Virus record (IMG/VR): IMGVR_UViG_3300041409_000599 | Span: 16,461 to 80,460 of that record | Source of the DNA: a virus | Strand: one strand, 5' to 3' | DNA length: 64,000 nucleotides | Shown: positions 413 to 60,256 of the stretch, one piece after another | Layout of the letters: every line of letters starts with the position of its first letter | Position numbering within the stretch: the first letter of the stretch is position 1 | The notes under the pieces: model-generated | Database searches by the model: none | Told to the model about the DNA's origin: nothing | The model's input: the letters and a program-made list of their open reading frames with translations, nothing else | Translations under genes and position numbers: made by a program

Positions 413-1290
413 CCGCGATGAGCACATCTCGAATCACGCGGCCGGTTCTGCGTTATCACGGAGGCAAGTGGAAACTGGCACCGTGGATCATTTCGCACTT
501 TCCGAAACACCAGATTTACGTTGAGTCTTTTGGTGGCGGCGGGAGTGTGTTGATCTCCAAGGAACGCAGTTACGCGGAAATTTACAACGATCTTGATCTT
601 GAAATCGTTAACCTATTCCGCGTTGTCCGCGACCAGGGACCAAAGCTGATCCGAGCAATCGAACTGACCCCTTACGCGAGGGAAGAATTCAACGCGAGCT
701 TTAGGCCGTCATGCCGGCCGCTGGAGCAGGCGCGGCGCACGGTGCTCCGGAGTTATGCAGGCTTCGGTGGAAACCTGACCAGGATTACTCGCGACCTAAC
801 CCCGCAACGGACCGGCTTCCGCGACTATTCCAAAAAGAATCGGCACGCAATTCCTGCCCAGGACTGGCGCAACTGGCCTGGCGCCCTGCCGAACCTCATT
901 GATCGGCTGCGCGGCGTGATCATTGAAAACCGAGACGCTATCAGGATTATCACGAAGCACGATAGCCCTGAAACCCTCCATTACGTCGATCCCCCTTACG
1001 TCCACACAACTCGACGGTTCGACGGAAACGGCCACCGTGGCCATCGCCATGAATTGACCGACGACCAGCATCGCGAACTGGCAACACTGCTGCACTCCGT
1101 CAAAGGCATGGTCATCATCTCCGGCTATCCCTGCGACCTCTACGACAAAGAACTGTACCCAAATTGGAAGCGCATTGAACGCCAACATTTGGCCGACGGA
1201 GCGCGCAAGCGCACGGAAGTGATCTGGCTAAATCAGAACTGCGTAGACGGTCTGCGCCAAATGTCATTCCCCATGGAGGAAACACAGTGA
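409..1290 (+). CDS. dam: DNA adenine methyltransferase (Dam/D12 class)
   Basis: RYHGGKWKLA, ESFGGGGSV, YNDLD and DPPY motifs. Confidence 0.9.
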   Translation: MTAMSTSRITRPVLRYHGGKWKLAPWIISHFPKHQIYVESFGGGGSVLISKERSYAEIYNDLDLEIVNLFRVVRDQGPKLIRAIELTPYAREEFNASFRPSCRPLEQARRTVLRSYAGFGGNLTRITRDLTPQRTGFRDYSKKNRHAIPAQDWRNWPGALPNLIDRLRGVIIENRDAIRIITKHDSPETLHYVDPPYVHTTRRFDGNGHRGHRHELTDDQHRELATLLHSVKGMVIISGYPCDLYDKELYPNWKRIERQHLADGARKRTEVIWLNQNCVDGLRQMSFPMEETQ

Positions 1291-8714: not shown

Positions 8715-9791
8715 TTAGCGCCGTCTGCCCATCCGCGCCGGCTGGCCCTGCGCCTTCACCCGGTCCACTGTTTGGTTGTAGCGAATTAACGCACTCGTCA
8801 AATCACCCTGCTCGGCCAGGGGCGCAACCGCTTCCTTGGCAATCTGCTGCATCGTTTTGATCGTCGGCTCGGGATGGCTCATTGCCAGATACTTAGCCGC
8901 GTCGCGGGCATGGTTGTCTTTGTCGACGATTGCTTCAGCCACGTTCCGCGTCAACAGCTGCTGGTTCGTCAGCTTAACGCGCCTGGTCCGCATCATCTCC
9001 CACAGCAGGTTGGGGCAATCCCAGTTGTGCAGCCCTGGCTGCGGCTTTTCTGACCAGTTGCGGCAAACGATCTTCAGCGTCGGCTCACGGTGCTCAAGGT
9101 TTGACCAGTGCATCATTACGCGGGCGGCAAAGCTTACGTCCATACGATCGCCAGCAAACGGCGAGAACAACTCTATCCCCTGCTCGCAATACAGTTCGTT
9201 GATTGACTTCGCGCGCTCCTGGACCTTGTTCGGTGTTTGCGATTGCTGCATGGTATCAGGGAAGATCGACGGGTCGGCGTAACAGGCCGAGACTTTCCTT
9301 ATGTCGTCCATCTTCTTCAGGTACGGAACGTGCTGCCAGACTTCGAGTCCCGGCATGTAGTACTCGCCGCAGAAGATGATCACGCCATCGTTGTCGACAT
9401 ATGCGCGCTCGAAGGCCGTTGGATTTGTCTTGCCATGGTCAAACCCGGCTTCGCAGCGCCATGTCGGATGCGGCTTGTAGCGCATATCGGTAATTACGAT
9501 TTTGTCCCAGTGGTCGCGCAGAACGCTGGCGAATACCAGTTCACCGCCGCCGGCATCATCCATAATTTCCTGCTCTCTGTCCCAGTCGGCCTGGGATGTG
9601 TAGAGGGCGCGCTGAGTTTTCTTCCACGCCGGGTTGAGGTTGGGGTCGCGCTCAGGGTCTGCTGAGTAGTGCAGCTTGATTACGGGAATGCCGCCCTTCG
9701 TGCGTCTCACGCTCATACCGCGGACGATTTCAACAGGCGTCTGCGGCGTCACTTCGCGGGATTTCCTGAGTGCTTTCTTTACATCCATCAC
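8715..9791 (-). CDS. terL: Terminase large subunit, C-terminal (nuclease) half
   Basis: LHYSADP, WDREQEI, GFDHGKTNPTA, YADPSIF, DKDNHARDAAKY. Confidence 0.85.
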   Translation of the reverse strand: MMDVKKALRKSREVTPQTPVEIVRGMSVRRTKGGIPVIKLHYSADPERDPNLNPAWKKTQRALYTSQADWDREQEIMDDAGGGELVFASVLRDHWDKIVITDMRYKPHPTWRCEAGFDHGKTNPTAFERAYVDNDGVIIFCGEYYMPGLEVWQHVPYLKKMDDIRKVSACYADPSIFPDTMQQSQTPNKVQERAKSINELYCEQGIELFSPFAGDRMDVSFAARVMMHWSNLEHREPTLKIVCRNWSEKPQPGLHNWDCPNLLWEMMRTRRVKLTNQQLLTRNVAEAIVDKDNHARDAAKYLAMSHPEPTIKTMQQIAKEAVAPLAEQGDLTSALIRYNQTVDRVKAQGQPARMGRRR

Positions 9792-10558
9792 AGTGAAATG
9801 TCCCTCTTCGCGTCAGCAAACCAGCCAGGGTTGGCCGAACTGTTGAACACGATCTTTCCTTTGACGGCTGAGATTGATTCGTTGTAGCAATCGCCGGCAT
9901 AGGGCTGGAATGCCGACTCGTCGTTGAACAGTCCCCACGGGTGATAGAACCTGATCTTGCCCTTGCCGCTGGGAATACGCAGGATCTCGGAACCGTTGGC
10001 AAAGGCCAGTATCTCTGCCGCCTGGGTGTCCGCCGGCTTTACCAGTGGGTGAGCCTCTTTCAGCCAGTCCGGCTGATTGCCGTAGAGCACCTTGGCGTAA
10101 TCAACCAGTTCTGTCGCTTTCTCGCCTTCCATGGTTTGGAACAGCACGCGACGTTCCGGGAACTTCATCGCCTGCCACAGAAAGAATGCGACGATGCCCC
10201 ATGACACCATCATGTCGCGGCTCTTCTCCCACCAGTAAACCGGCTCGTCCGGATCCATCAACAGATCGAACATTGGCTGGAAGTAGGGCTTATCGGGGAA
10301 AGGCTCGTAAGGGCTGGGGCGATGTTCTTCTACCCAGTGAGGATTGAATGTTTTGGTGAAATGGCGGGCCCAATGGTAGGGATGGCGCGTAGCGTCGGCG
10401 ACCTTCTCCATCAGCGTTTCAAGCTGCTGGGCCTGTTCGGTGGCTGAGCCTTGGGCCTGGGCTTTAAGACGGCGGGATTGATTGAGTTGGACCTGCGCAA
10501 AGACGCGCAAATCCAACGGCGCCGGGTTCTCCGGCGACCACTGATCTAGTATGCTCAT
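9788..10558 (-). CDS. terL: Terminase large subunit, N-terminal (ATPase) half
   Basis: Walker A-like EKSRDMMVSW, Walker B FNDESAF, motif III SSANPG. Confidence 0.85.
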   Translation of the reverse strand: MSILDQWSPENPAPLDLRVFAQVQLNQSRRLKAQAQGSATEQAQQLETLMEKVADATRHPYHWARHFTKTFNPHWVEEHRPSPYEPFPDKPYFQPMFDLLMDPDEPVYWWEKSRDMMVSWGIVAFFLWQAMKFPERRVLFQTMEGEKATELVDYAKVLYGNQPDWLKEAHPLVKPADTQAAEILAFANGSEILRIPSGKGKIRFYHPWGLFNDESAFQPYAGDCYNESISAVKGKIVFNSSANPGWFADAKRDISL

Positions 10559-10587
10559 TCGACAAATCGCTCAGAATTTGTAACGAA
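10558..10587 (-). promoter_or_regulatory. Hairpin with CTGAGC loop abutting the TerL-N start codon
   Basis: TTCG(TT)ACAAATT-CTGAGC-GATTTGT-CGAA, then ATG. Confidence 0.6.
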
Positions 10588-10610
10588 CGAATCTGCTTTT
10601 AGGGGATACG

Positions 10611-11093
10611 TTAGTTGACGCTGCCCTGGCCGCCGCTCTCAGACTTTGGCCAGTATCCGTGCTCTACAAAGAATTCCTTTTCCGCTTCGCTCTTGCCTTC
10701 CAGTTGTTTCCTGAACTGATCGTGCTCCTGGCCTTTCACCATGAAGCCCTGCATCTCAGCCACTAGGCGCAACGCCGCCACCTGGCCTGTGATATTGCTG
10801 TTCGTTTCTTTGGGCAGCATGTCGGCCAGCTTCAGCGCTCGTTCCGTCACGTCGATCTTGCTGGCCTTGGTGGCAATCTTCCGGGCTGATACCTCAACCA
10901 TCTGCTTCCGCTTTTCCTCGATCGCCTTGGCAATCTCTGGTATCTGCATCAGACGAAACGAGTCGCGTGCCGGATCGGAGAACCCAGCATCGCGCGCCGC
11001 CTGTACGTCATCACCCTTCCACGCCAGCACGTAGGCCATGCGCATTTCCGTCCACTTGAATTTGTTCTTGCCGGTTCTCTTGTGTGACGCCAT
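10611..11093 (-). CDS. terS: Terminase small subunit
   Basis: QAARDAGFS..RLMQIPEIAKAI HTH; lies directly upstream of TerL. Confidence 0.75.
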   Translation of the reverse strand: MASHKRTGKNKFKWTEMRMAYVLAWKGDDVQAARDAGFSDPARDSFRLMQIPEIAKAIEEKRKQMVEVSARKIATKASKIDVTERALKLADMLPKETNSNITGQVAALRLVAEMQGFMVKGQEHDQFRKQLEGKSEAEKEFFVEHGYWPKSESGGQGSVN

Positions 11094-14000
11094 TACCGCT
11101 CCTCAAAGGCATGCAGTGCACCTTCGCGTTCGCCTTCAATGGGATTGCCCCGCATGGTGCTGACGGCCTTCTTCAGCATGATTGGCCGGATAATCGCTTT
11201 CTCTTCCGGCGTGGCCGCGTTGAATACCTTCTTTACGTCTGAGTAGCGATCGAGGCGCGGCAGGTAGAAGCTCAACTCGTCCAGCGCCTGCTTCTTCAGT
11301 TGGGCTTTGCGCTCCTTCTGGCTCAAGTCGCCGGACTCGATGCGCGCGCGCTTGTCGTCCAATTGCTTCTGCAGGTCCGGAGTCAGCGCCATGTTCTCGC
11401 GCAGGAGTTCGTGCATCAGCCGCACCGCGGTCGATTGCGTTTCGGAATTGGGGAAGGTAACGCCAGCCTGGTAGGCCAGCAGGTCGCGGGTCGGAGTCTC
11501 TGACCGTTCTGCCTTTTCTACCTGCTGCGTCGGGCCCAGGGCGCCAGTAATCTTTTTGCCCACATCATGCGCGATCGTTGCCGCCGGCGCATGCCGATCG
11601 TAGATCCTGCTGCCGCTGTAGAAGTCACGATTGAACGCCAACTCCGCCGCTGTCTTCGGCAGGACCGCCGGCGTGAATGTTCCCTGAATCAATTCCTCTG
11701 GCGGCTTGTTGCCTTTTACAATCTCATTCACCAGATACGGCACCGCCGAAGCGCCAGAGCGTACCATGCGCGCCTTGGGGTCGCCCGTAATCTTCTTCAG
11801 CAGTTTGTCCCACATCTCATAGGCCACAAACGTCAGCAGCCCCAGCATGAACAGGTGATCAAACCCGCGCGCCCGGTCCTTCCATGTGCTGTCCGGGCTA
11901 GCCGCTTCCTTCAACATCTGCCCGTAGGATTTCCACACGCCATAGTGGTACCGGCTGAATACCGTCAGCATGTGGCTGTTCATGAATTTCGAAAGACCAT
12001 GCGAGTTGAGCACCCGTGAAGGGATCCGGTAATCAGGGATGTGCTTCGCCGTCTCCGCAGCAGCCTCTTCAAAGGGCATGCCGCCCAGGGCTTTCTCATA
12101 GGTCGCCTGCAGAAAAAAGATATCGTTCGACATCCACGTCATCTTCTGCCCCAGCTTGTACAGCCCTTTCATCATGTCCAGATGGTTGGCGTAGCCGGCC
12201 GCTTTCGCCAGCATGCTCGCCACGTCGGTGTGATGGTCAAGGTAGCCGAGGATTGAATCCACCAGGTGCTTATGCAGTTCGCGCAGGTCCTGGCGATGGC
12301 TCATCATCGGCGCGCCGTGGTCCAGCGCCTGCACAAAGTCGTCGTTCTGCGTTACCACGGCTTTGATTGCCCGAATGCCGGCTTTGAACGAACGCGGATA
12401 CCTGAACACGTTGAAATTGCCGGTGACGCCTCGTTCCACCAGCCAGTGATTGCCGATGTTATAGACGTGCCGCGCGGGATTGAGCACCAGGGACGCTGTC
12501 ATCAGGTTGCCGATCTTTTCCATGGCGCCGGCAGGGTCGGCATGCAGTTCGTCGGCAAAGCGGTCCAGCGTTTCCGCCAGATGCTTTTCAAAATAGTAGC
12601 CATTGAATTGCGGCAGGTTCACCGTGCGCCAGCCGTCCGGAGGCATCTCGCCATGCTCCGGCTTGAAACTCAGGCTCTTGAACTCAGGGTCTTCCTTCAT
12701 CGCATCGAGCGCGTCATTGGCTCGTTCCGCGCGCCGAAGTTGCAGATAGTCCACCACGGTGTTGGCCAGCGCGTTCTTGTAGTAGCGAACGCCGGTGTGC
12801 TCCTCAATCTCTTTAGTTGTGGCCTGCTTCAACGTCCAGCGCTGGCCGTCTTTATCGTTGAACTCATCTCCCACCTGCAAGCCGGGCTTGTCTTTGGCGA
12901 ACTCTGAAGCGCTGCCGTTATCGAACGCCGTCATGGTGTCGCCATTGCGATGGACCACCACGCGCTGGCCGTCTTCGTCTTCCGCGGCAAACATCCGGCG
13001 CCCTTTGAGAGAACTGGCCGCTTTCGATAGCACGTTGCCTTTGCCGGTGCCGCCTTTGCCGCGCATGGCGCGTTCCATCTGGTTGTTCTTGCCCTGGACC
13101 TCGCGATGGATATAACCGTCGTCCTCGCCCATGGGAACGCCGGCCTTGTTCAGCTTGGCGCGCATTTCGGAATTGGCGTCCATCAGCGGCTGTACTACGC
13201 CCTCAAGGTTGGCCTGCTGCCGGGCCGTCAGCGCTTCGCCGCTATCTTCTTTATGGTGGTAGATGGCGGCCTGGTCTTCGGGCGAGGTTGTCGGGCCCAC
13301 GGCCTTCAGCAGCTTGATCACGCGCAGCACGTCGGCATCTGACTGCTTGCCCAGCTGGTAGAGCGTGTCGTCAATATTCTTGGCCGCTTTGTTTAATCCC
13401 GGTTCCAGTACTCGGTCCCAGGTCTTTTCTTTCGCGGCCTTCACCAGATCGGCTACGGCCGATGGAACGTTGAGACGGGCAAAGCCGGATTCACCGCTCT
13501 TGTCCTTGAGCGTCTTCAGTCCGACGGTTACAGTCTTGCCGTCGTCGGTCTTGACCCGGGCAATATTCATTTCCGGGTGGACGTACTGCACTTGACCGCT
13601 GCGGCCATCGGCCAGGGTTACGGTTTCGCCTTTGGCTGGTGCGCCCGGCTGATTGAATAACCCGCTCTGCCCGCTCGCTTCCGAATCGCGAAACAGCGGC
13701 GAGTTGCGTTCCATTTCGCCGGTCTTGGTGCTTATCGATTCTTTTGGCGCGGTAATCTCGCGCGAGAGGTCTTCGCCGTGCTTTTCAGCAACGGCTTCCT
13801 TTTCTGCCGCAACATGAGGTTCCATGCCGGGCAGTGTTGGCTCTTCAGATTTGTTTTTTGGTCTGCGTAGCTCTTCCAGGTCGGAAGGTTTTACTGAGGC
13901 TTGCCGGTCGGCGTTTCCTGCATCTTCTTCTGCATGTCCTGGATGCTCTTGAACTCGTTCAGCACCCTGCCCTTCGCTCCCGGTGACAGCTTTTCGTAGC

Positions 14001-17000
14001 TCGGCTCTGACGGCTTGGTAGGCTCTGCTCTTAACGTCTTCCGGTTTGTGGTATCCACTGGCTAACTCCTTGGCGGACTTTTCCAGAATGTCATTGACCG
14101 GGCCGGTGTGCGAACTCAGTTTATTGTACGCCTCCTCGGCCTGCCCGGCGGCATCGGCAATCTTTCTGTTCTGCTCGGCCTTCAGCTTCTGGCCCTTCAC
14201 CTGGCCCAGCGCGGACGCTTTGTCCTCGGTCGCCACTGATCCAAACACCCTGCGCTCTTTTGCTATCTGCGCTTTGATGTGCGCCGATATCTCCGCTTTC
14301 TCCAGAGCCAGAGAATGGATCTGCTGATTGGCGCCGAACAATCCCCCTTGCTCAATGGTCTTGTTGCCGGAGTTGCCCACGAACCGCGCCAGCTCCGCGA
14401 CCGTCGCATCAGTAACGCTCTTGCCTTGCTTCTCGCGCTTGTCGAGCAGTTTTAGAATCGCTTCCTGCTGCGCCGGATCACTCGTCGCCTGTCCGATGGC
14501 CACGCCGCGGCCTTCGCTCATCTTGCCCGTGGCCACACGCTCAAAGATCGATTGATCGAGTTTAGATAGCGCCAGGCCGTCCGCGGCTTTGGACTCGCCC
14601 AGGGAGATGCCGTGCTTGCTCAGGTCGGCGGGTGAGATGCCGCTCTCGCGGAAGAATTTTGCCGCGTCGACGGCTGTCCCTCTGCCTTCAGCAATGTTCT
14701 GCAGGGCGCCCGTTGCGCGCGCTTCGCCTGCGGTGTCAACATTCAAATGGCGCGCAAGAAGATCATGTGCGCCGTTTTCTTTTGCCAGTTGAACGCGATG
14801 GTGTCCATTGACCACGTAAGTCTTGCCATCGGCGGGATTGTGCCAGATGGAGACCACGCCAGCCAGATCGTCATTCCATTTCTGCCCGGAAAGAAGGTTG
14901 GTTACGCCGTGTTCGTTGGTGTTGAGTTTGTACTGAAATTCTTTTGGCGCGATCGTGAGGTCATCCACGCGGACGCGGCCAGCCTGCCCTTTGGCCGGGA
15001 TGCCTTCAGGCAGTTGATGCTCAATCTCTGATTCGTGGAAGGTCTGGGGAGCTACTTCTTCGGTTCCACCTTGAGTGGCGGCTTCATGTCCGACTTCAGT
15101 AATTCCTCTAAGCTCACCACGGGCACGCTCTCCGGCTGCTTCTCTGGCGGTCTTGTGTTTGTGGAGTTCGGCTTCTGCGGATTTGAGGTCGGTTCCTGTG
15201 CCATAGCTAAAGTCTACTCCTTGGAGCGTGACGGTATTTCCATCTGCATCGGTGACGGTAAACTCGCGGTTCCTGAGGATCGCGCGCGCCTTTTCCAGCC
15301 CGGCTTTCAATTGCTCCGGCGATTCACCGCGATAGAGAAATTCATCACCCTTCTGATGGTAAGCGTCCAGTCCGGCTTCTTTCGCCGCTTCGGCTTTGGC
15401 CACCAGAATAGTGTTGCCTGCCTTGTATCCAAACTTGTCATTGAAGGCTTTCAGCGCGTCGGCGTCCGACATGGCCACCGCCGGCGACGAGGGCGCATCG
15501 TGGAAGGCGCGGCCATTCGGAATTGGCATCTCTGTGTGTGTGCCGTCGCCATTGTCCAGCCGCGACGTGTGCAGTTCCCGCGCCATCTCATGCGGCTTCA
15601 TATCCGCCACGCGCTTGCGCTCGGCCACGTTGGTGCGGCGGTCCGGCTTGTTGCCGTATACCGTACCTTTGCCAGAATCGTAATCGGGAAAGAGCACGAC
15701 TACATTGTGTGGGCCGTACTTTTTCCCTGCGGATCGGCCACCTTCGTGGCGCAACCCGTGATATCCCATCTCCACCAGATTCTGGGAGATGTCGCCGAGC
15801 AGGTCCTGAATTTCGTAAGCCGGGATGCGCTGCGCCGCCGATTCATCCCGTAATTCTGAATAGATGTGCGTGCCCTTGGTGCCTTCAGGAAAGGCAGACA
15901 TGCCCAAGGGGGTGTACTGTTCAATTCGTTTATTGAAGAGCTGGAGAACTTTGTCCGGCAGAGGCTTTTCCAGATCCAGAACTTTTGCGCCTGGTAACTC
16001 GGCTGAGAGCACGTGACGCTGTTCTGTCCTACCCTCGTCAGGTTTTCTGGTTCGCTTGTAACCTTCTGCCACTTTCGGATTATCGGTAAGGTAAAGCCCT
16101 GGACCGTAAATGTTCAATTCACCGGAGAACCCTACCGGATCAGCCTCTTTCAGTTCCGTCAAACCATGGGGCGTGCCGTGATAAAACGTCTTGCCGCCGG
16201 GCAATTCCTCGTGTGTCAATGGTTCATATTTGTAGCCGCCTTCAAGGGGTATGCGTTCTTCTGTCCCATCTCTCTTGCTGACGACAACATGGTCCACAGG
16301 GATCTTGCCGCCCTCCAGATGGCTGCCGCCTTCATATTTGGCAACATGTTCCGGCTTCACGTAGCCCAGAGTGACGTGCGGCTTATACTCGCCGTGGTCG
16401 TCCGGCTTAAACTCGCCGGCGCCCTCAACCGCTGAACGCAAGGCGTTAAGTTCGGGAGATTTCTCCACGTGCACAATGACTGGATGGGCACCTTCCTTGG
16501 TGGCCGGGAATGATCCAGTCTTGCCGACCGTGGCCTCAAACGGCGCTATCTTGGCCGCCGCATCCTTTATATGGGCGATGGCTTCAGGGCTGTCGTCTTT
16601 CAGGCCATAACGCACCGTAACGTGCGGAGTCTTTTCCTTGCCGTTCGGCCCCAGATGCTCTTCCGGGATGGCCGCAACCGCTTCGGTATGCCGCTGGCCC
16701 AGCTCGCTCTTGGGCTCGATATTGACTTGCGTGGACGCATATTCATGCGCTGGCTGGATGTCATTCTCGGTGAATACTTTAGGAGCAGCTACTTCCTGTT
16801 TTGCTCCCTCATTTCCGGTCAGATTTTGGGTAGATTGAGACTCCTGGGGCACACCAGGAGCCTGTGTTTCGCCCAAGTCAGTCTGAACCGGCTGCGGAGT
16901 GGGTGCCTGTGGCTCTTGAGCCGGTGTTGCCTTCGGTGGACGCGAACTGGCTAGGAACTGTCTGACCGGTGCTGCCGGCGTACTTGTGGCTTCAGGTGTC

Positions 17001-18550
17001 CTATTGGCAGCTTCCGGTGAGCTTTTGGCCGGTTGCTGTGAGCTTTCGGTCTTTACTTGCACCTTGGCCGCTTCAGCCGTGGCCTTATCGTGCGCTGCCA
17101 CGCCATCATTAATAAGCTTGGCCGCCAGTGCTTCCGCTGCGTCGGGCGTCTTCGCGATGTGGATCTTGCCATCCACCACGACCTTGCCCTTGTTGTCGGC
17201 AATCCACTGCGTCAGGTTCTGGTGCGCCTCGTCGATAACCTGGTTGCGTTTTCCTTCCGGGACTTTTGCGATCGTCTGCGCCAGATGGTCAACCTGCGCG
17301 CCCGAAAGCTTGTTGCCAAACTCCTCGCCCGGAGTGGGTGGCGGCGGCGCCGGAGGCGGTACCGCTGGCCTTCCTGCAACAACGTTCTTGGCCATCGTCG
17401 CGGAGGCGTTGGCCTTCACCATCGACGCAACCTCAGAAGGCATCGGCCTTGGAGGTGCTTCAGGATTGTGCGGCGTACCGGTTATTTCTCCCGGCCCGGG
17501 TCCAAGTTGGCGTGGCTGGCCGGTTCTTCCAGTTGATGTGTCGCCTTCCGGTGCGGCTTTGTCCTCATAAGAAAATCCTCGCGAGAACTTTCGTCCGAAT
17601 CGCGTATCACCGACTTTGGCCCCAATCGTCACGTCTTCCGGGGTCACGCGGACACCGCCAGATACCCTGTCACCAAAAGCGGAGAACTCTCCTATCCGGG
17701 TTGGACGTGGTCCCGGGCCTTTACCGTAGCCGGACTTCAGCCCGGAAACCACGCCCAGGGCTGACGGCGCAAACATCGACACCGTGCGAATCAGGTCTTC
17801 ATCTTCAGGCGATACATGCCCGTGGACGGCTGCGCCTGCGCCCTCGCTGGCGAGCATGCCTGCGCCGAATCCCAGCGCTGTCTTGGCCGGGGCCATCACA
17901 CCAGATGCCGCTACCAGCGGCAAACTGACATCGCCTACGCCCTTGATGGTTTCAGCAATGCCGCTCATTTCCTGCCGCCGGGCTGCTTCGGGCATCCGTG
18001 TAAGCGGTACGCGCTGGCCGGTACGAGGATTGGTAAAGAACGCGCCGTTGTCCGGTACCTGCTGGCTTTCAGCTTTCTTGATGTCGCTGGCACCGCTGGC
18101 AATCTGCTCCGGGCCAGTCGTAAACGGACGCGCCGGATCATAGATCGGCATATCCGCTTCAGGCACGGCAGAGAGTGGAACGCGCTGGCCAGTCCGAGGA
18201 TTCGTGAAATGGCCGTCCGTTGGTTCCTTCGGTGCACCTGCAACCGGAGCCAGCGGCATACCGGCGGATTCACTGGCGGCAGTCTGTGGACTCTTCGCGC
18301 GCGCCACGGACGCCTGTGTGTCTTTGTCCGGCTGGTTCCAGAGCGTTCCAACCACATCAGAAAACTTTGGCGCAGGACGAGACGCGGCCGGTGCTTTGTA
18401 TCCGGGAGAGCCGGGGCCAAGGGGATTGCCGCCGAGCGCAGTTCCGGTGCTGGGTTTGGCTATCTCGTCTTCGCCGAAGGTGATCGGCTTGGACGACTGG
18501 CCGGACTGATCGATGTCCTGATCGCTAAAAACTACCGGGGAATCGGGCAT
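11093..18550 (-). CDS. Giant polyvalent internal virion/ejection protein (2H phosphoesterase, ART-like, GGDEF-like and ParB-like domains)
   Basis: PHVTV/PHVTL; YHGT..GPGLYLT; NDKFG..KGDEF; VNGHHR; position after other ejection proteins. Confidence 0.85.
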   Translation of the reverse strand: MPDSPVVFSDQDIDQSGQSSKPITFGEDEIAKPSTGTALGGNPLGPGSPGYKAPAASRPAPKFSDVVGTLWNQPDKDTQASVARAKSPQTAASESAGMPLAPVAGAPKEPTDGHFTNPRTGQRVPLSAVPEADMPIYDPARPFTTGPEQIASGASDIKKAESQQVPDNGAFFTNPRTGQRVPLTRMPEAARRQEMSGIAETIKGVGDVSLPLVAASGVMAPAKTALGFGAGMLASEGAGAAVHGHVSPEDEDLIRTVSMFAPSALGVVSGLKSGYGKGPGPRPTRIGEFSAFGDRVSGGVRVTPEDVTIGAKVGDTRFGRKFSRGFSYEDKAAPEGDTSTGRTGQPRQLGPGPGEITGTPHNPEAPPRPMPSEVASMVKANASATMAKNVVAGRPAVPPPAPPPPTPGEEFGNKLSGAQVDHLAQTIAKVPEGKRNQVIDEAHQNLTQWIADNKGKVVVDGKIHIAKTPDAAEALAAKLINDGVAAHDKATAEAAKVQVKTESSQQPAKSSPEAANRTPEATSTPAAPVRQFLASSRPPKATPAQEPQAPTPQPVQTDLGETQAPGVPQESQSTQNLTGNEGAKQEVAAPKVFTENDIQPAHEYASTQVNIEPKSELGQRHTEAVAAIPEEHLGPNGKEKTPHVTVRYGLKDDSPEAIAHIKDAAAKIAPFEATVGKTGSFPATKEGAHPVIVHVEKSPELNALRSAVEGAGEFKPDDHGEYKPHVTLGYVKPEHVAKYEGGSHLEGGKIPVDHVVVSKRDGTEERIPLEGGYKYEPLTHEELPGGKTFYHGTPHGLTELKEADPVGFSGELNIYGPGLYLTDNPKVAEGYKRTRKPDEGRTEQRHVLSAELPGAKVLDLEKPLPDKVLQLFNKRIEQYTPLGMSAFPEGTKGTHIYSELRDESAAQRIPAYEIQDLLGDISQNLVEMGYHGLRHEGGRSAGKKYGPHNVVVLFPDYDSGKGTVYGNKPDRRTNVAERKRVADMKPHEMARELHTSRLDNGDGTHTEMPIPNGRAFHDAPSSPAVAMSDADALKAFNDKFGYKAGNTILVAKAEAAKEAGLDAYHQKGDEFLYRGESPEQLKAGLEKARAILRNREFTVTDADGNTVTLQGVDFSYGTGTDLKSAEAELHKHKTAREAAGERARGELRGITEVGHEAATQGGTEEVAPQTFHESEIEHQLPEGIPAKGQAGRVRVDDLTIAPKEFQYKLNTNEHGVTNLLSGQKWNDDLAGVVSIWHNPADGKTYVVNGHHRVQLAKENGAHDLLARHLNVDTAGEARATGALQNIAEGRGTAVDAAKFFRESGISPADLSKHGISLGESKAADGLALSKLDQSIFERVATGKMSEGRGVAIGQATSDPAQQEAILKLLDKREKQGKSVTDATVAELARFVGNSGNKTIEQGGLFGANQQIHSLALEKAEISAHIKAQIAKERRVFGSVATEDKASALGQVKGQKLKAEQNRKIADAAGQAEEAYNKLSSHTGPVNDILEKSAKELASGYHKPEDVKSRAYQAVRAELRKAVTGSEGQGAERVQEHPGHAEEDAGNADRQASVKPSDLEELRRPKNKSEEPTLPGMEPHVAAEKEAVAEKHGEDLSREITAPKESISTKTGEMERNSPLFRDSEASGQSGLFNQPGAPAKGETVTLADGRSGQVQYVHPEMNIARVKTDDGKTVTVGLKTLKDKSGESGFARLNVPSAVADLVKAAKEKTWDRVLEPGLNKAAKNIDDTLYQLGKQSDADVLRVIKLLKAVGPTTSPEDQAAIYHHKEDSGEALTARQQANLEGVVQPLMDANSEMRAKLNKAGVPMGEDDGYIHREVQGKNNQMERAMRGKGGTGKGNVLSKAASSLKGRRMFAAEDEDGQRVVVHRNGDTMTAFDNGSASEFAKDKPGLQVGDEFNDKDGQRWTLKQATTKEIEEHTGVRYYKNALANTVVDYLQLRRAERANDALDAMKEDPEFKSLSFKPEHGEMPPDGWRTVNLPQFNGYYFEKHLAETLDRFADELHADPAGAMEKIGNLMTASLVLNPARHVYNIGNHWLVERGVTGNFNVFRYPRSFKAGIRAIKAVVTQNDDFVQALDHGAPMMSHRQDLRELHKHLVDSILGYLDHHTDVASMLAKAAGYANHLDMMKGLYKLGQKMTWMSNDIFFLQATYEKALGGMPFEEAAAETAKHIPDYRIPSRVLNSHGLSKFMNSHMLTVFSRYHYGVWKSYGQMLKEAASPDSTWKDRARGFDHLFMLGLLTFVAYEMWDKLLKKITGDPKARMVRSGASAVPYLVNEIVKGNKPPEELIQGTFTPAVLPKTAAELAFNRDFYSGSRIYDRHAPAATIAHDVGKKITGALGPTQQVEKAERSETPTRDLLAYQAGVTFPNSETQSTAVRLMHELLRENMALTPDLQKQLDDKRARIESGDLSQKERKAQLKKQALDELSFYLPRLDRYSDVKKVFNAATPEEKAIIRPIMLKKAVSTMRGNPIEGEREGALHAFEER

Positions 18551-22181: not shown

Positions 22182-23107
22182 AGCTGTGGCAGCTTCCTTG
22201 ATCCGCTCCCCGGAGCCCCGCCGCCGGCGGTCGTGCCGCCGCCACCAGGTATGCCGCCGGTGCCGTCAGCCTTCACCGTATGCGTGGTCGCGATATAAAA
22301 CAGAGCGTCCGCAATCGTCTTCAGGTATTGCGTTGCCGTGGGGAACGCCTGCATCAGATTCACGGTCGACCACACCACGGCATAGTCGGTGTCCTGCGCC
22401 GCACCCAGGATGATTGCGCCAGCGGTAGAAATCGCGTTGCCCTGGCCGTCAAAGCGGCTGAAGGCGCTGCCGACGCCGCCCGCGCCATAAACGCGAATAT
22501 CATCCGTGCCGCCATCCACTACCGAATCCACCGTCGCATTGTTGGTGCTGTTCAACGGCGACCGCGGCGCGATGGAAGGCGACCGCATAAACCCGCTCTG
22601 CACGCCTACCGGCCCGCAGGTCTGTGCCGACGAAAAAATCTGCCAGTCATTGAAGTTCTGTCCATCGAACGAACTGCGCACCCGGAAAAAGCGGGTCTCG
22701 TTGGGCCGCTGGTCCTGGCCAAAAACATCCGGGGTAATCCCGTAGTCCAGCAGGCTCGAAGAATTATTGAAATTGCTGTCCGTCGCCGATTGCACATTGT
22801 GGAGAATCACCGCGCCGTTGAGGTTCATGCCCTGGGCGAGCTGGGCGCGCATCTGCGCTACCGACTGCGGATTCACGTTCTGCGGGTTGGTGATGATCCA
22901 GCGGAATTTACCGTCAATGCCTATCACGCTCAACGCACACGCCGGCGGCGGCGCTGTCTGCGTCGGCTGCTGGTTCGGATCATCCACGAAGCGCGGAACC
23001 TTGCCGCCACCGTTGACCGCGATGGAGTCCAGATGCTGGTCCAGGGCGATAACAAACTGCTGCTGCTGGCCGGTGAACGCGCCGACATAGCTTCTCAGTC
23101 CGCTCAT
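22178..23107 (-). CDS. Tail-associated structural protein
   Basis: Beta-rich/FN3-like composition; ATGA coupling. Confidence 0.65.
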   Translation of the reverse strand: MSGLRSYVGAFTGQQQQFVIALDQHLDSIAVNGGGKVPRFVDDPNQQPTQTAPPPACALSVIGIDGKFRWIITNPQNVNPQSVAQMRAQLAQGMNLNGAVILHNVQSATDSNFNNSSSLLDYGITPDVFGQDQRPNETRFFRVRSSFDGQNFNDWQIFSSAQTCGPVGVQSGFMRSPSIAPRSPLNSTNNATVDSVVDGGTDDIRVYGAGGVGSAFSRFDGQGNAISTAGAIILGAAQDTDYAVVWSTVNLMQAFPTATQYLKTIADALFYIATTHTVKADGTGGIPGGGGTTAGGGAPGSGSRKLPQL

Positions 23108-25773
23108 CCGTGCCTCGCCGCGGACGTAACACGCGCATAGATAGCAGCCCACTTCAGATCAAACCACACGTCTTTCTGGTTGCCATTGCTCACGCGCAGA
23201 CGGTACTTCTCATAATTCCCGCGCGCGCCGCAGGCGTAGGGAATTCCGGCAATCAGTGGTTTCTTGAGCGCTATCACCTGCCGCCGGTCAGCGCTTGGGC
23301 CGTCCGATGGGTCCTTCGCGCGCATGGCCAGCACTTCCGCGCGATTCACGCCCTGGCCGTCCACGTTGGCCTGTACGCCACCCAGTTGCGATGGCTTCAG
23401 GAACTCTTCCGGGCAGACCGTCTCAAAGACTGAATTGATGGGCATGCCGTTGTCGTTGAACACAAACGGCACGCTCGCGCTCACTACGCCGTCAGGATTC
23501 GATGAACCAAAAAGAATCTGGCTCTGCGTCGTCGCCAGGTCCATGTCCGGAGGCGGATTCACCAGCTTGCGTTCCGCCCGGATACAGACATTCGCCGCAA
23601 TGTCGTCAATCGACCACTTGTAGCATGTGCCGGCTGCAATCTCTTTGCCGATATAAGGCGAGAAGTGGATGGGCCTGCCGAAGTCCGGCGACTCTTCATA
23701 ATTACACTTCAGCACCAGGCTGGGCTCGGTCACGTTCGGCCCGTAAGGAACGCCGACGCGAATCTCGCGCGTCTCGTCGTCGATCATGATCCAGATGGTG
23801 TGCTTCGCCGCCCAGTTTACTTTTGTCCACGTGATGGGAAGTTCCAGGCTGATGAGCAGCGGGTCGCCGCCTTTGTAGATCCACACTCCGGAGCGATGCA
23901 CGTACGCCATGAACGTGGTACAGACATCCACCGCGCGGAAGCCGCATGGCCCGGAGCCGCTCCACTGCTTCACCGGCAGCCAGTCCGCAGGATTGTCAGC
24001 CGACGGGCTCACCAGCCAGCCCGAATCTTCCTTCATGGCATAAGTGTTGGTCTTGTAATCGCGGATGGCCACGCGGTTGAAGCCATTGTCCTGCGCTACC
24101 TGCATGATGCTGGTGTCGCCGTAGATCGACTCGGGATCGTCCAGCAATGAAACATACCAGCCGCTTTTGAGCGTGTCGGCCGCGTAGAACATGCGCTTCA
24201 GGTTGGCCGAGTAGTACACGTCGGCCGCGCTCGGGACCTGAATCTTGCGGAAGTAGGAAGACACGTCATTCAGCGTGAGCTTCAGATAGTCGTCGGTGAA
24301 ATTGAATGTCGCCGAGGTTGTGGTGTTGTCATTGATCAGCGTCGATGTCATCGCAATGCCGTTCACCACTTCCGCCACGGTCACGCCGGCGGCAATCGTC
24401 GAAAGATCAAAGATGCCGTTGGGGAAGTTGGGCGAGATCCAGAAATACGGTCCTGCGCTCGATATCCCATTGCCCGCCGCGGAACTCAACTGGCCCGCCG
24501 GAGTCAGCGCCACAATGCGCGCCGCGGTGCTGGGACTGGGAAAGGTTGGCAGATGGGCCATGTAGAGTTGCAGGCCATCGCCCGGACTCGAAGCCGGGTT
24601 GTAGCTGACGATCGCGGCCTGCGCCACTCCGGTAATGTAGCCATTGCGATTCACGCCCAGCACCAGGGCATAGCGCAAGCCGGAACAGATGTTGCCCACC
24701 GGTACGATGCGCGAGTTATCCACCTGCGGGACAACCGCTCCGGTGGCGGTCGTCGTGACGGTAAGGTTTGCCCCAATGGCGGTGAGACCGCCAAAGGCCT
24801 TGAACGCCGTAGGCAGTGGCGCCGCGTTGCCGTGGGCCACGTCCGCCTCGTAAACGCTGTAGCCTGTCACCGCATTCGCGCCGGCAAGCTGCTGCACCCA
24901 TGTTGGCAGTACCGGCGAGACAACGGTAAAACCGTCATTCAGCGTTGTGTTCAGGAAGATGAAGATGGTCGATAGAGCAGATTCTCCGTTGCCATTCGTA
25001 AGCGTGACTACGATGTAAACGTCGCGGGCGGCGGCGAATGTCCCCGCAGCTCCAACGCGATTCACCGTCGGCGCAGTTTGCAGCAGAAGCTGAAGCGTCT
25101 GCGCCATTACCGGAGTGGTCTCGGTCCAGGTAATCCCGTTGTCAGCGATCGTGCCGCCTTCGGTCACGGGAAAGACAGGTTGCGCGGCGCCACTGGTTCC
25201 AGCCACGGTGCAGCGGTAGATGTGGCTATTGCCGCCCACCGGAGTCGAAGGCGTGACCGTGTCGCCCACCTGGTACACCGTGTTGGCAGACCACGGAACC
25301 CCGGTCGGCTTGGCTGACAGCGGATCAAGGTTGAGTGTCTGAAGATTCAGAACGGCCGGCGCGGCCTGCGTGCTCAGCAGGTCGGTGAAAGCCAGATACG
25401 CCTTCTTGTACGCCGCTGCTGCCTGCAGGCTGAATTGCGGAAGCGTGACCTGGGCGCTGGTGATTGGCACCAGCACCCCACTGCCCACCGGGGATTCCAC
25501 TTTCAGATTGCCGCCCTGGTCGTAGACGAGCGGTATCTGGGTATCGGGATTCCCGCCCAGCTTCAAGGATGCAAGGCCGGTGATCTGCTTCAGGTTGCCG
25601 GTGGAAAAGCCCCAGTCTGAGCGTATGCCGTCGCGCGTGCGGACAGACGTCAGATGGTACTTTACGTTCCGGGCAACCGCAGCCACACCCAGCGGCAGGG
25701 CAGTAGGATCGTCTTGTTCTACAAGGCTTGAGAAGCGAGTGATCGCTTCTTCTTGCCAGTCAGTAAAGTTCAT
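23104..25773 (-). CDS. Tail nozzle/tubular protein B-like with CBM- and Ig-like insertions
   Basis: Size and position after the adaptor; WSANTVYQVGD CBM-like motif. Confidence 0.7.
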   Translation of the reverse strand: MNFTDWQEEAITRFSSLVEQDDPTALPLGVAAVARNVKYHLTSVRTRDGIRSDWGFSTGNLKQITGLASLKLGGNPDTQIPLVYDQGGNLKVESPVGSGVLVPITSAQVTLPQFSLQAAAAYKKAYLAFTDLLSTQAAPAVLNLQTLNLDPLSAKPTGVPWSANTVYQVGDTVTPSTPVGGNSHIYRCTVAGTSGAAQPVFPVTEGGTIADNGITWTETTPVMAQTLQLLLQTAPTVNRVGAAGTFAAARDVYIVVTLTNGNGESALSTIFIFLNTTLNDGFTVVSPVLPTWVQQLAGANAVTGYSVYEADVAHGNAAPLPTAFKAFGGLTAIGANLTVTTTATGAVVPQVDNSRIVPVGNICSGLRYALVLGVNRNGYITGVAQAAIVSYNPASSPGDGLQLYMAHLPTFPSPSTAARIVALTPAGQLSSAAGNGISSAGPYFWISPNFPNGIFDLSTIAAGVTVAEVVNGIAMTSTLINDNTTTSATFNFTDDYLKLTLNDVSSYFRKIQVPSAADVYYSANLKRMFYAADTLKSGWYVSLLDDPESIYGDTSIMQVAQDNGFNRVAIRDYKTNTYAMKEDSGWLVSPSADNPADWLPVKQWSGSGPCGFRAVDVCTTFMAYVHRSGVWIYKGGDPLLISLELPITWTKVNWAAKHTIWIMIDDETREIRVGVPYGPNVTEPSLVLKCNYEESPDFGRPIHFSPYIGKEIAAGTCYKWSIDDIAANVCIRAERKLVNPPPDMDLATTQSQILFGSSNPDGVVSASVPFVFNDNGMPINSVFETVCPEEFLKPSQLGGVQANVDGQGVNRAEVLAMRAKDPSDGPSADRRQVIALKKPLIAGIPYACGARGNYEKYRLRVSNGNQKDVWFDLKWAAIYARVTSAARHG

Positions 25774-60010: not shown

Positions 60011-60256
60011 GGATGACGAGACCTTCCTCAACGATCGTGAAAAGAAATTTGGGGGAGATGCGCTATCCTAACACACGTTCTTTCTTGGGAGAGGCCTGCC
60101 TTCGCATGGGCCGAGTTTTAAGGCGATCACCTGATACGCCAGCACCACGATGAAGGCGCGGCAGCATCGGAGCTGACGTAAACGCGGAATTTCCATTGAA
60201 CCGACCGGCAAAAATGGTACAAACATCATGACAACCTGGAGGCCAATGATTCCGCC

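Follow-up and report, generated by a model that had tools for sequence, protein, structure and literature searches.

In the viral DNA that was analyzed here, a giant open reading frame encodes one polypeptide of 2485 amino acids, in which four domains follow each other in a row: a 2H phosphoesterase, an ART-like, a GGDEF-like and a ParB-like domain. This domain stack, originally predicted from sequence motifs, was confirmed in the window, i.e., the whole stretch of 64,000 nucleotides (positions 16,461 to 80,460 of IMG/VR record IMGVR_UViG_3300041409_000599). The HxT pair, YHGT/GLYLT, the GGDEF fold and NGHHR were all found in a single ORF at the positions predicted for them (Table 1), and each domain passed an independent test of its own, namely Pfam for the 2H domain, structure for the ART-like and ParB-like domains and profile comparison for the GGDEF-like domain. 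The AF2 models of ART and ParB match known folds and the GGDEF profile matches solved diguanylate cyclases. The motif set together with the domain matches lies far beyond chance. The analysis established the identities of the domains, the conservation of their residues, an exchange of domain cassettes among relatives and a conserved gene order. We consider it fairly probable that this is a phage-type polyvalent protein, most likely packed and delivered together with the DNA, that carries exchangeable effector cassettes on a chassis.

Table 1. Features of the giant ORF in the window; residue i of the ORF begins at nucleotide 18550-3(i-1).
Feature	Residues (aa)	Window position (nt)	Strand	Remarks
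Giant ORF	1-2485	11093-18550	minus	2485 aa, cysteine-free
N-terminal module	1-590	16781..18550	minus	Pro/Ala/Gly/Ser-rich
F-x-[DE]-x-[DE]-I, further copy	8-13	18512-18529	minus	
F-x-[DE]-x-[DE]-I, further copy	25-30	18461-18478	minus	
Boundary motif F-x-[DE]-x-[DE]-I	593-598	16757..16774	minus	directly N-terminal to 2H domain
2H phosphoesterase domain	604-772	16235..16741	minus	both HxT motifs (H643, H725), Pfam
First HVT	643-645	16616-16624	minus	
Second HVT	725-727	16370-16378	minus	
ART-PolyVal-like ADP-ribosyltransferase fold	786-958	15677..16195	minus	AF2 model and structural matches
YHGT	790-793	16172-16183	minus	
GLYLTD	818-823	16082-16099	minus	
HNVVVLF	948-954	15689-15709	minus	
Compact GGDEF-like nucleotide cyclase domain	1005-1140	15131..15538	minus	profile match to solved GGDEF proteins
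SDADALKAFND	1028-1038		minus	
AGN	1044-1046		minus	
KGDEF	1067-1071	15338-15352	minus	
F-x-[DE]-x-[DE]-I, further copy	1171-1176	15023-15040	minus	
ParB/Srx N-terminal domain	1188-1289	14684..14989	minus	family-invariant FQYK, W1236, NGHxR 1248-1252, N1285
NGHHR	1248-1252	14795-14809	minus	
ParB-type helix-turn-helix DNA-binding domain	1290-1397	14360..14683	minus	VIA alignment to Noc, Spo0J
Helical extension	1398-1530	13961..14359	minus	accompanies ParB module without exception
C-terminal module	1760-2485	11096..13273	minus	hydrophobic-rich, conserved

The giant protein belongs to the already described polyvalent proteins and is not a new kind of thing, since all four domain types and the prediction for the 2H domain were already reported (Iyer et al., 2017, J Bacteriol, PMC5512222). 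In that study, 2H, GGDEF, ART (H-Y-D clade) and DdrB-like ParB are listed as polyvalent domains, the 2H and the DdrB-ParB domain occurring in the phage type only; moreover, polyvalent 2H domains were predicted to destroy defence nucleotides and the whole polyvalent protein to be packaged and injected. The link to this class made in the original prediction was correct, as the architectures of the relatives and BFVD matches named 'Large polyvalent protein associated domain-containing protein' indicate. At least two unrelated effector domains are joined here in one large polypeptide, and the context is of a late packaging type, with TerS/TerL-like neighbours, a conserved order and relatives carrying MuF or Portal_Mu. 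Of the hub domains usual in polyvalent proteins (metallopeptidase, MuF, portal), Pfam detected none in the giant protein. Its sequence taken alone scores below the Pfam cut-offs for GGDEF, ART-PolyVal and Acb1.

The 2H domain carries the two HxT/S motifs of the superfamily and scores over the Pfam cut-offs for PF13563 (E 6.6e-18, 65.6 bits; cut-off 27) and PF02834 (E 6.6e-8, 33.1 bits; cut-off 23.3). The His and Thr residues of both motifs are invariant in the 2H alignment (A6). The original prediction had pointed to the anti-CBASS nuclease Acb1, and this lead is modestly supported: Acb1 (9q2g) is the nearest solved sequence to the 2H profile (E 0.0014), followed by YjcG (0.013) and the penguinpox cGAMP PDE (0.017), but the Pfam Acb1 model (PF23474) reaches 16 bits, under its gathering cut-off of 27.

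For the ART-like and the ParB-like domain, searches of PDB sequences, both with single sequences and with profiles, gave no significant match (no relevant match for the ART profile; for the ParB profiles only ParB 6t1f at E 0.13), and the folds were therefore tested by structure prediction. At E<=1e-3, 635 homologs of the ART segment were found among 1.8 billion representatives, and 20 of 35 short homologs match PF18760 ART-PolyVal at E<=0.001 (best 1.6e-15), while the sequence here yields 20.7 bits (cut-off 31.2). Its AF2 model (pLDDT 84.9) aligns with 9k3a_B, a pre-ejectosome protein of cyanophage A4, over 170 residues (VIA Z 14.3, rmsd 3.6; Foldseek E 3e-5), and at VIA Z 5.6-7.5 with diphtheria toxin (Z about 7), MbcT, ParT, RES, the anti-CRISPR protein 6kyf, tankyrase and ExoA, i.e., the ART fold of PF18760 / Tox-ART-HYD2 is present. 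The strand-1 His H791 and the strand-2 Tyr Y820 are conserved in 141 and 143 of 144 relatives, respectively, and Y831 is also conserved. Originally, the usual catalytic Glu was thought to be replaced at HNVVVLF. The acidic residue is indeed missing, but in the polyvalent ART clade the signature is H-Y-D instead of H-Y-E (Iyer et al., 2017, PMC5512222), so that the residue in question is an Asp, and the site is GYHG. HNVVVLF forms the strand after the GYDG column and is not the catalytic site; its His is conserved in 138/144 relatives. In the GYDG column, Asp is found in 91 of the 144 relatives (63%), among them the nearest one, and His931 (GYHG) is found here. With strands assigned from the AF2 model, the strand-5 Asp of ART-PolyVal / Tox-ART-HYD2 is absent, and alignment and predicted strands place His931 at its position.

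The ParB segment was modelled with a pLDDT of 89.3, and phrog_21 spans residues 1183-1511 (E 2.6e-72). Foldseek matched the model to Noc (7.8e-5), ParB-CDP (1.6e-4) and KorB (2.4e-4). In VIA alignments, in which ParB matches overall reach Z 10-11, the N-domain superposes on Caulobacter ParB (Z 10.6, rmsd 2.5 over 95 aa) and on sulfiredoxin (Z 7.5), and the HTH (model 126-233) on the Noc DNA-binding domain 6y93 (Z 5.9) and on Spo0J-parS 4umk (Z 6.2), whereas 6t1f_D spans both ParB domains (181 residues, rmsd 4.2). The pocket Arg R1252 is invariant in 53 sequences, in agreement with a ParB/Srx fold. The Pfam models DdrB-like ParB (PF18763) and ParB_N (PF02195) do not match the ParB segment at E<=10, and Pfam gave no meaningful match on the ParB, N-terminal, middle and C-terminal segments.

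For the GGDEF-like domain, PF00990 matches the segment with an E of 3e-4 and 21.0 bits, below the cut-off of 23.8, and relatives match it over the cut-off at the same place. Compared with the PDB, the segment profile (A4) retrieved 32 solved GGDEF proteins and zero unrelated chains at E<=0.01, the best match being TpbB (E 1.7e-5, covering positions 19-157 of 170). Of the signature, G-D-E-F is kept and the first Gly is Lys in at least 80% of the relatives. The metal-binding D1029/D1031 are present, as are K1034 and N1037. The Asn/Asp pair that reads the guanine is incomplete: N1037 is kept and the Asp is replaced by Asn1046, a position at which the relatives are divided between Asp and Asn.

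Beyond the single domains, the comparison of relatives newly shows that they behave as cassettes that can be swapped, flanked by N- and C-terminal modules that are conserved. Among the 165 long relatives, PF13563, PF00990, PF18760, PF18763, RelA_SpoT, zeta toxin, MuF, Portal_Mu, LPD and helicase/methylase domains occur in shuffled sets, and of two otherwise collinear relatives, L004 misses the ART and L006 the 2H and the ART domain. The full four-domain combination is rare (2/119 relatives). In 31 of 39 relatives having both, 2H and GGDEF are adjacent in either order; as the query that yielded this set covered 2H and GGDEF together, the co-occurrence is biased and the adjacency is not. In an independent, ART-anchored set of 150 proteins almost none contains 2H or GGDEF. 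The N-terminal module, with two weakly hydrophobic stretches within residues 208-271, is kept in about 26 of 119 long relatives and is presumed to be part of the chassis. The C-terminal module, kept in about 20 relatives, is presumed to be a chassis or virion-association part; ESM Atlas leads point to viral clusters including LPD38 and LPD39, and Pfam shows no zincin metallopeptidase, MuF or LPD hub in the giant protein. The C-terminal module matched nothing in Pfam (also with five of its relatives) or among PDB sequences. A pattern scan of viral contigs with the C-module alone found nothing, and its relatives were recovered inside loci fetched via the ParB module. Moreover, the motif F-x-[DE]-x-[DE]-I is present in four copies versus 0.2 expected, and the closest relatives, P0002 and P0003, have it conserved at these boundaries too.

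The question of whether the protein is part of the virion was approached via the gene neighbourhood. The stop codon of the giant ORF overlaps with the ATG of the next gene (TAATG), and TerS- and TerL-like genes (weak PHROG matches) follow directly downstream. The order 889-aa ORF, 324-aa ORF, Hint protein, 452-aa ORF, giant ORF and TerS-like gene is kept in the related viral contigs L004 and L006. For the 889-aa ORF, the ESM Atlas gave leads that point to families of tail hubs, nozzles and muzzles. With a segment of a 2571-aa protein the ParB module shares 33% identity; this protein belongs to the cyanopodovirus P-SCSP1a (Autographiviridae), in which it comes after gp12 and three ORFs in a T7 gp16-like position; BLASTP revealed no similarity between the 889-aa ORF and the 953-aa ORF upstream of this protein. 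The gene order is compatible with the position of a T7 gp16-type ejection protein, after tail tube/nozzle and small internal proteins and before terminase, with nozzle, portal and capsid insecurely identified. By PHROG or Pfam no portal, capsid or other structural gene of the source contig was identified, and the assignment as a podovirus therefore draws on leads; terminal repeats are absent from the 80,460-nt contig. A lytic or membrane-spanning domain as in T7 gp16-like proteins was not seen in the giant protein. From synteny and a single structural match, to a pre-ejectosome protein of solved structure, it is plausible that the giant protein is an ejection protein. Packaging and injection, like each of the enzymatic activities, are what we infer; injection is supported indirectly by the conserved gene order, the related module of P-SCSP1a and the ejectosome match.

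Alternatively, the giant protein might be a late cytoplasmic multi-enzyme that is not packaged and acts in the producing cell, e.g., by suppressing abortive-infection signalling or in assembly. The capsid-linking MuF, portal and metallopeptidase domains were not detected and packaging is deduced from gene order, which would agree with this. Nevertheless we regard it as unlikely, given the conserved position within the structural/terminase block, the relatives fused to Mu F and Portal_Mu domains, the strong match to the pre-ejectosome protein and the fact that enzymes countering defence signals are most useful at entry. It would also be conceivable that some or all cassettes have decayed to binding or structural modules, the ART becoming an NAD/target binder, the GGDEF a nucleotide sponge and the ParB a DNA anchor for genome ends. 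The loss of the clade's catalytic Asp, present in the nearest relative, and the exchanges of the first G to K and of the base-reading D to N in GGDEF fit such a decay, and phages are known to counter defence with nucleotide sponges (PMC12657218). However, the 2H HxT pairs, the metal/catalytic Asp and Glu of GGDEF and the Arg/Asn of ParB are (nearly) invariant across distant relatives, which indicates that at least three of the four domains are under selection for catalysis or for ligand binding. We regard such a decay as unlikely.

Concerning the combination of activities, the adjacency of 2H and ART could point to RNA repair, in which 2H would open the 2',3'-cyclic phosphate ends that anticodon nucleases of the host leave behind, and a KptA/Tpt1-like ART would remove the 2'-phosphate via NAD, a 2H-to-KptA route that is established in viral and cellular RNA repair (PMC9503650). 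We consider this very unlikely: a KptA-like RNA 2'-phosphotransferase was rejected for the ART, which is diphtheria-toxin-like (YHGT, YxTD...GY) and groups with PF18760, close relatives keep 2H without the ART cassette, 2H occurs together with this ART in only 4/119 relatives, an RNA ligase was not seen, and polyvalent 2H domains were never associated with RNA ligases (Iyer et al., 2017, PMC5512222). The adjacency of 2H and GGDEF might reflect a functionally coupled, injected pair for a write-and-erase counter-defence at entry. In such a pair, 2H would erase host immune cyclic nucleotides, and a replacement or decoy dinucleotide coming from the cyclase would jam receptors or quiet 'guard' systems. 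Panoptes-type guard systems fire when their own constitutive cyclic dinucleotide is depleted. For this coupling our confidence is low.

In the phage-type polyvalent protein that we favor, the giant cysteine-free polypeptide would be made late in infection and most likely packed in the capsid of a short-tailed phage of Acidobacteriota-like hosts with other internal (ejection) proteins, to enter the next cell together with the phage DNA. The conserved N- and C-terminal modules would serve as chassis and carry the exchangeable effector cassettes between them. The most likely substrates of the 2H domain, whose double HxT site is intact, are immune signals of cyclic or 2'-5'-linked nucleotides, which it would hydrolyse like Acb1; 2',3'-cyclic phosphate RNA ends would be an alternative substrate. 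The diphtheria-toxin-like ART of the polyvalent H-Y-D clade keeps the NAD-pocket residues, and with its catalytic Asp changed to His the chemistry is probably weakened or altered. In the GGDEF-type cyclase, the metal and catalytic residues are intact and the base-reading Asp is exchanged for Asn; its product is probably a cyclic dinucleotide, of uncertain base specificity. The ParB N-domain and HTH, in which the Arg/Asn signature of the nucleotide pocket is kept, probably bind NTP and DNA, and the module probably acts on incoming or host DNA. As proposed originally, the protein may both degrade and synthesise nucleotide signals.

As a summary, the giant protein is a clean and testable example of a putative virion-delivered counter-defence toolkit in poorly studied soil (Acidobacteriota-type) phages. 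Cassette swapping is directly visible in closely related phages, in which the ART and 2H modules are present on the same chassis in some cases and missing in others. Furthermore, 2H and GGDEF are tightly linked, which suggests that nucleotide signals may be both destroyed and made by phages at entry. The general concept and the presence of each domain were covered by the work of 2017, and the present finding is an extension. Like phage-type polyvalent proteins, it is a single huge polypeptide from a late/structural gene block with unrelated effector enzymes stacked in it; unlike in them, neither a zincin metallopeptidase nor MuF nor a recognised LPD hub could be detected here, and the cassettes are framed by conserved N- and C-terminal modules that match nothing known.

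At the level of the domains, the 2H fold and two HxT motifs are shared with Acb1 (PF23474; PDB 7t26, 9q2g), but the general LigT-like model PF13563 describes the 2H domain better, and it is part of a giant protein, whereas Acb1 is a small early protein. The GGDEF-like domain has the motif order PNxRAF, DxD-LK-xND, G-x-x-AG, GDEF, SYG-G and HK in common with PleD, WspR, TpbB and Hypr variants. It differs from diguanylate cyclases in its size (~135 aa, with a shortened first helix), in KGDEF instead of GGDEF, in the Asn at the guanine-reading Asp, in the absence of the inhibitory RxxD site and in having no attached sensory domain. As in the ParB/Noc/KorB clamps, the N-domain is followed by an HTH, and the Arg (GxxR-type) and Asn (ENxxR-type) are conserved; in contrast to these and to the phage P1 DdrB-like ParB, NGHHR replaces GERR. 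Unlike known ParB proteins, the module lacks a ParA partner and the ParB-type C-terminal dimerisation domain, and unlike ParB/Noc/KorB it is extended by a family-specific helical region; from the polyvalent DdrB-ParB, whose Pfam model does not match, it differs by its full ParB-type HTH. Finally, the cyanophage A4 protein (PDB 9k3a chain B; PMC12002296) is a large internal podophage capsid protein, one domain of which superposes on the ART here at an identity of only 11-16%, and the correspondence seen with the giant protein concerns this ART-like domain. The term ADP-ribosylation is absent from the A4 ejectosome paper (PMC12002296), and the match to this unannotated domain of a solved ejectosome protein suggests that effector domains do travel inside ejectosomes.

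The window spans nt 16461–80460 of one 80,460-nt contig, on which no terminal repeats were found. Residue i of the giant protein starts at nt 18550-3(i-1), so the region 14700–16750, for which the original prediction had proposed 2H phosphoesterase, ART, GGDEF and ParB domains stacked in an ejection protein, corresponds to residues ~601–1284. All motifs on which this proposal was based were found at their positions in the giant ORF (see table). Both copies of the exact repeat FTNPRTGQRVPL lie within a low-complexity N-terminal region of the protein.

Features of the giant ORF and its neighbors (nucleotide positions refer to the window)
Feature	Position	Strand	Remark
Giant ORF	11093–18550	minus	2485 residues, single long ORF
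HVT (2H)	residues 643 and 725		giant ORF
YHGT (ART)	residue 790		giant ORF
GLYLTD (ART)	residue 818		giant ORF
HNVVVLF (ART)	residue 948		giant ORF
SDADALKAFND (GGDEF)	residue 1028		giant ORF
AGN (GGDEF)	residue 1044		giant ORF
KGDEF (GGDEF)	residue 1067		giant ORF
NGHHR (ParB)	residue 1248		giant ORF
FTNPRTGQRVPL, exact 12-residue repeat, 2 copies	18173–18208 and 18002–18037	minus	aa 115–126 and 172–183
F-x-[DE]-x-[DE]-I	18512–18529	minus	aa 8, N-terminus
F-x-[DE]-x-[DE]-I	18461–18478	minus	aa 25, N-terminus
F-x-[DE]-x-[DE]-I	16757–16774	minus	aa 593, border directly before 2H domain
F-x-[DE]-x-[DE]-I	15023–15040	minus	aa 1171, border directly before ParB module
TerS-like ORF, 160 aa	within 8715–11093	minus	start overlaps giant ORF stop (TAATG)
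256-aa ORF after TerS-like ORF	within 8715–11093	minus	weak TerL PHROG match
358-aa ORF overlapping 256-aa ORF	within 8715–11093	minus	no family match
889-aa ORF	23104–25773	minus	CBM5/12-like stretch; upstream of giant ORF

The 2H domain is borne out by Pfam matches above the cut-off for residues 612–762 (2_5_RNA_ligase2, PF13563, E 6.6e-18; LigT_PEase, E 6.6e-8) and by the invariance of both histidines and both threonines of the HVT pairs across eight relatives as distant as 38% identity. It had also been compared to the nuclease Acb1. A profile of these eight sequences does find Acb1 (9q2g) as the best solved sequence in the PDB (E 0.0014), followed by B. subtilis YjcG (E 0.013) and a penguinpox cGAMP phosphodiesterase (E 0.017), but with the Pfam Acb1 model the domain reaches only 16 bits (cut-off 27) and by Pfam's rule is therefore not a member of the Acb1 family. 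The comparison with Acb1 is thus reasonable as an analogy of function, with weak statistics behind it.

For the GGDEF segment alone PF00990 reaches 21.0 bits (cut-off 23.8), and relatives with 45–68% identity over the segment exceed this threshold at the equivalent position. The assignment is confirmed by a seven-sequence profile, which retrieves 32 distinct solved GGDEF proteins and no unrelated chain from the PDB at E≤0.01, the best being TpbB (1.7e-5, profile positions 19–157 of 170). The canonical motif order PNxRAF, D-x-D-x-L-K-x-x-N-D, G-Y-x-A-G, G-D-E-F, S-Y-G-x-G and H-K is kept, whereas the first glycine of the canonical GGDEF is a lysine in this family; an RxxD inhibitory site is absent from the domain. 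In canonical cyclases an aspartate reads the guanine, while the giant protein has Asn1046 at this position and both Asp and Asn occur among its relatives. We infer a probably active nucleotide cyclase with an uncertain base preference. A stand-alone 156-aa GGDEF-like protein with 38% identity to the domain is encoded by Pseudomonas phage Churro (OL763419.1, 3917–4387); in Pseudomonas Yuavirus phages its gene lies beside a putative anti-restriction gene within the early/middle part of the genome.

On sequence alone, ART is the weakest of the domain calls: in Pfam the isolated segment matches PF18760 with E 7.5e-4 over the N-terminal third only, followed by Exotoxin-A and DUF3990. When 1.84 billion representatives were searched exhaustively with residues 775–985, 635 relatives were obtained at E≤1e-3, most of them matching over the full domain, and PF18760 is matched by 20 of 35 short relatives (best 1.6e-15). 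The fold is supported by an AF2 model from the relatives' alignment (pLDDT 84.9), which among PDB structures resembles most closely a protein of the cyanophage A4 pre-ejectosome, chain B (Foldseek E 3e-5; VIA Z 14.3, rmsd 3.6, 170 residues), followed at VIA Z 5.6–7.5 by diphtheria toxin, MbcT, ParT, RES toxins, the anti-CRISPR protein of 6kyf (presumably AcrIF11), tankyrases and exotoxin A. In this solved ejectosome protein (PDB 9k3a chain B), the domain that matches the ART-like model lies within residues 467–1604 (Z 14.3). The A4 proteins gp26–gp29 are ejection proteins packed on the portal (PMC12002296); the text of that paper does not contain "ADP-ribosyl" and its description names no ART-like domain.

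The polyvalent ART clade carries His in strand 1, Tyr in strand 2 and Asp in strand 5 (Iyer et al., 2017; PMC5512222). In a 144-sequence alignment H791, Y820, D823, Y831, H935, G937/G938 and H948 are near-invariant, and the GYDG column just ahead of predicted strand 5 holds Asp in 91 sequences, including the nearest relative (P0121), and His in five, including the giant protein. Since the clade Asp column is His here, the earlier remark that an acidic catalytic residue is missing was right; the expected residue is however Asp and not Glu, and the site was misplaced, because HNVVVLF is strand 6.

The ParB segment has no match in Pfam, and its profile reaches among PDB sequences only E 0.13 (Caulobacter ParB). 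The AF2 model of residues 1165–1530 (pLDDT 89.3; 53 sequences from viral contigs) nevertheless corroborates the ParB call, matching Noc, ParB-CDP, KorB, ParB-CTPgammaS and Spo0J (Foldseek E 8e-5 to 7e-4; VIA Z 10–10.9; N-domain alone rmsd 2.5 over 95 residues), with sulfiredoxins as further matches (VIA Z 7.5). The following ~105 residues superpose in VIA on the DNA-binding domain of Noc/Spo0J. By these fold matches the modeled module is a ParB N-domain with HTH and a private helical extension, distinct from the Pfam DdrB-ParB model. In a viral structure library the top matches are pieces of proteins with the name 'Large polyvalent protein associated domain-containing protein', and behind them come numerous ParB/Spo0J proteins of phages. 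The invariant residues of the 53 sequences include FQYK, W1236, N-G-H-x-R (1248–1252), N1285 and D1295, which fits a preserved nucleotide pocket.

A word-indexed search with residues 600–1300 identified 165 long relatives (1366–4349 aa) from metagenomes and Acidobacteriota MAGs, in which 2H, GGDEF, ART-PolyVal, DdrB-ParB, RelA/SpoT, His-phosphatase, zeta toxin, helicase/methylase, LPD, Mu F and Portal_Mu domains are shuffled. Mapping seven segments of the giant protein on 119 of these showed that 2H, GGDEF and ParB module vary independently, that a frame of N-terminal (aa 1–600) and C-terminal (aa 1760–2485) modules recurs in ~20–26, and that all four domains occur together in only two. Cassette gain or loss is seen directly in two closely related viral contigs, L004 and L006, whose giant genes are collinear with that of the window and lack ART (L004) or 2H and ART (L006). 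In 31 of 39 relatives having both, 2H and GGDEF lie ≤100 residues apart (20 with 2H first, 11 reversed), an adjacency that is not due to the retrieval bias of this set toward proteins with both domains. This closeness hints at a possible functional pair.

The motif F-x-[DE]-x-[DE]-I with a proline ahead (P-x-x-F) occurs four times (0.2 expected), at the same borders in the two closest relatives (P0002, P0003) and not there in more distant ones. The copies may be processing or docking sites; if so, 2H-ART-GGDEF would form a unit of ~64 kDa, separate from a second one made up of the ParB module and the C-terminal part.

It is rather probable that the giant protein is packaged and injected. In favor of an ejection protein are the directly downstream TerS-like and split TerL-like genes with weak PHROG matches and the TAATG overlap of stop and start, the ART domain's match to a solved pre-ejectosome protein, the absence of cysteine from all 2485 residues, and the 889-aa ORF, for which language-model leads only point to tail-hub ('Phage_stabilise'), nozzle and crAss muzzle families. 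Moreover, part of a 2571-aa protein encoded by the Prochlorococcus phage P-SCSP1a (Autographiviridae) shares 33% identity with the ParB module over 338 residues. That protein also has a weak ART-like stretch and is preceded by gp12 (tail tubular protein) and three ORFs, a position we take to be the T7 gp16 place. In Ruegeria phage 45A6 a 3912-aa protein with this module adjoins tail-fiber genes. Against ejection count that profiles found no portal or capsid genes on the contig and that the giant protein has no lytic, membrane or MuF domains. The 889-aa ORF is 48–49% identical to ORFs of L004 and L006, which share the gene order 889-aa ORF, 324-aa ORF, Hint-ending ORF, 452-aa ORF, giant ORF and TerS-like gene; its structural neighbors are mostly from Acidobacteriota, suggesting this as host phylum. 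At the far contig end the minus strand carries two ORFs that are unusual passengers, one of 805 aa with repeats of the fibronectin type III and DUF11 kinds (61440–63857) and one of 409 aa that contains a PPIase (rotamase) domain (58802–60031).

As a whole, the original observation of motifs and four domains was confirmed, and its interpretation is supported in part only. The central idea was already published, as Iyer et al. (2017; PMC5512222) defined polyvalent proteins, with ART as commonest protein-modifying domain, 2H, RelA/SpoT and DdrB-ParB as phage-type-only and GGDEF as present but not widespread, and proposed that 2H domains degrade nucleotides of nucleotide-activated defense systems. 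What the locus contributes beyond this is a particular four-domain member whose ART is an H-Y-H variant, whose GGDEF domain has the Asn variant at the site that reads the base and whose ParB module includes a complete HTH, together with a recognizable chassis showing cassette exchange and the 2H-GGDEF linkage. Recent work on Panoptes showed that a minimal GGDEF-like polymerase supplies hosts with a constitutive pool of cyclic dinucleotide, which they guard, and that they fire once phage proteins deplete this pool. In view of such guarding, a cyclase that the phage would deliver together with a neighboring phosphodiesterase is an attractive, though quite improbable, hypothesis.
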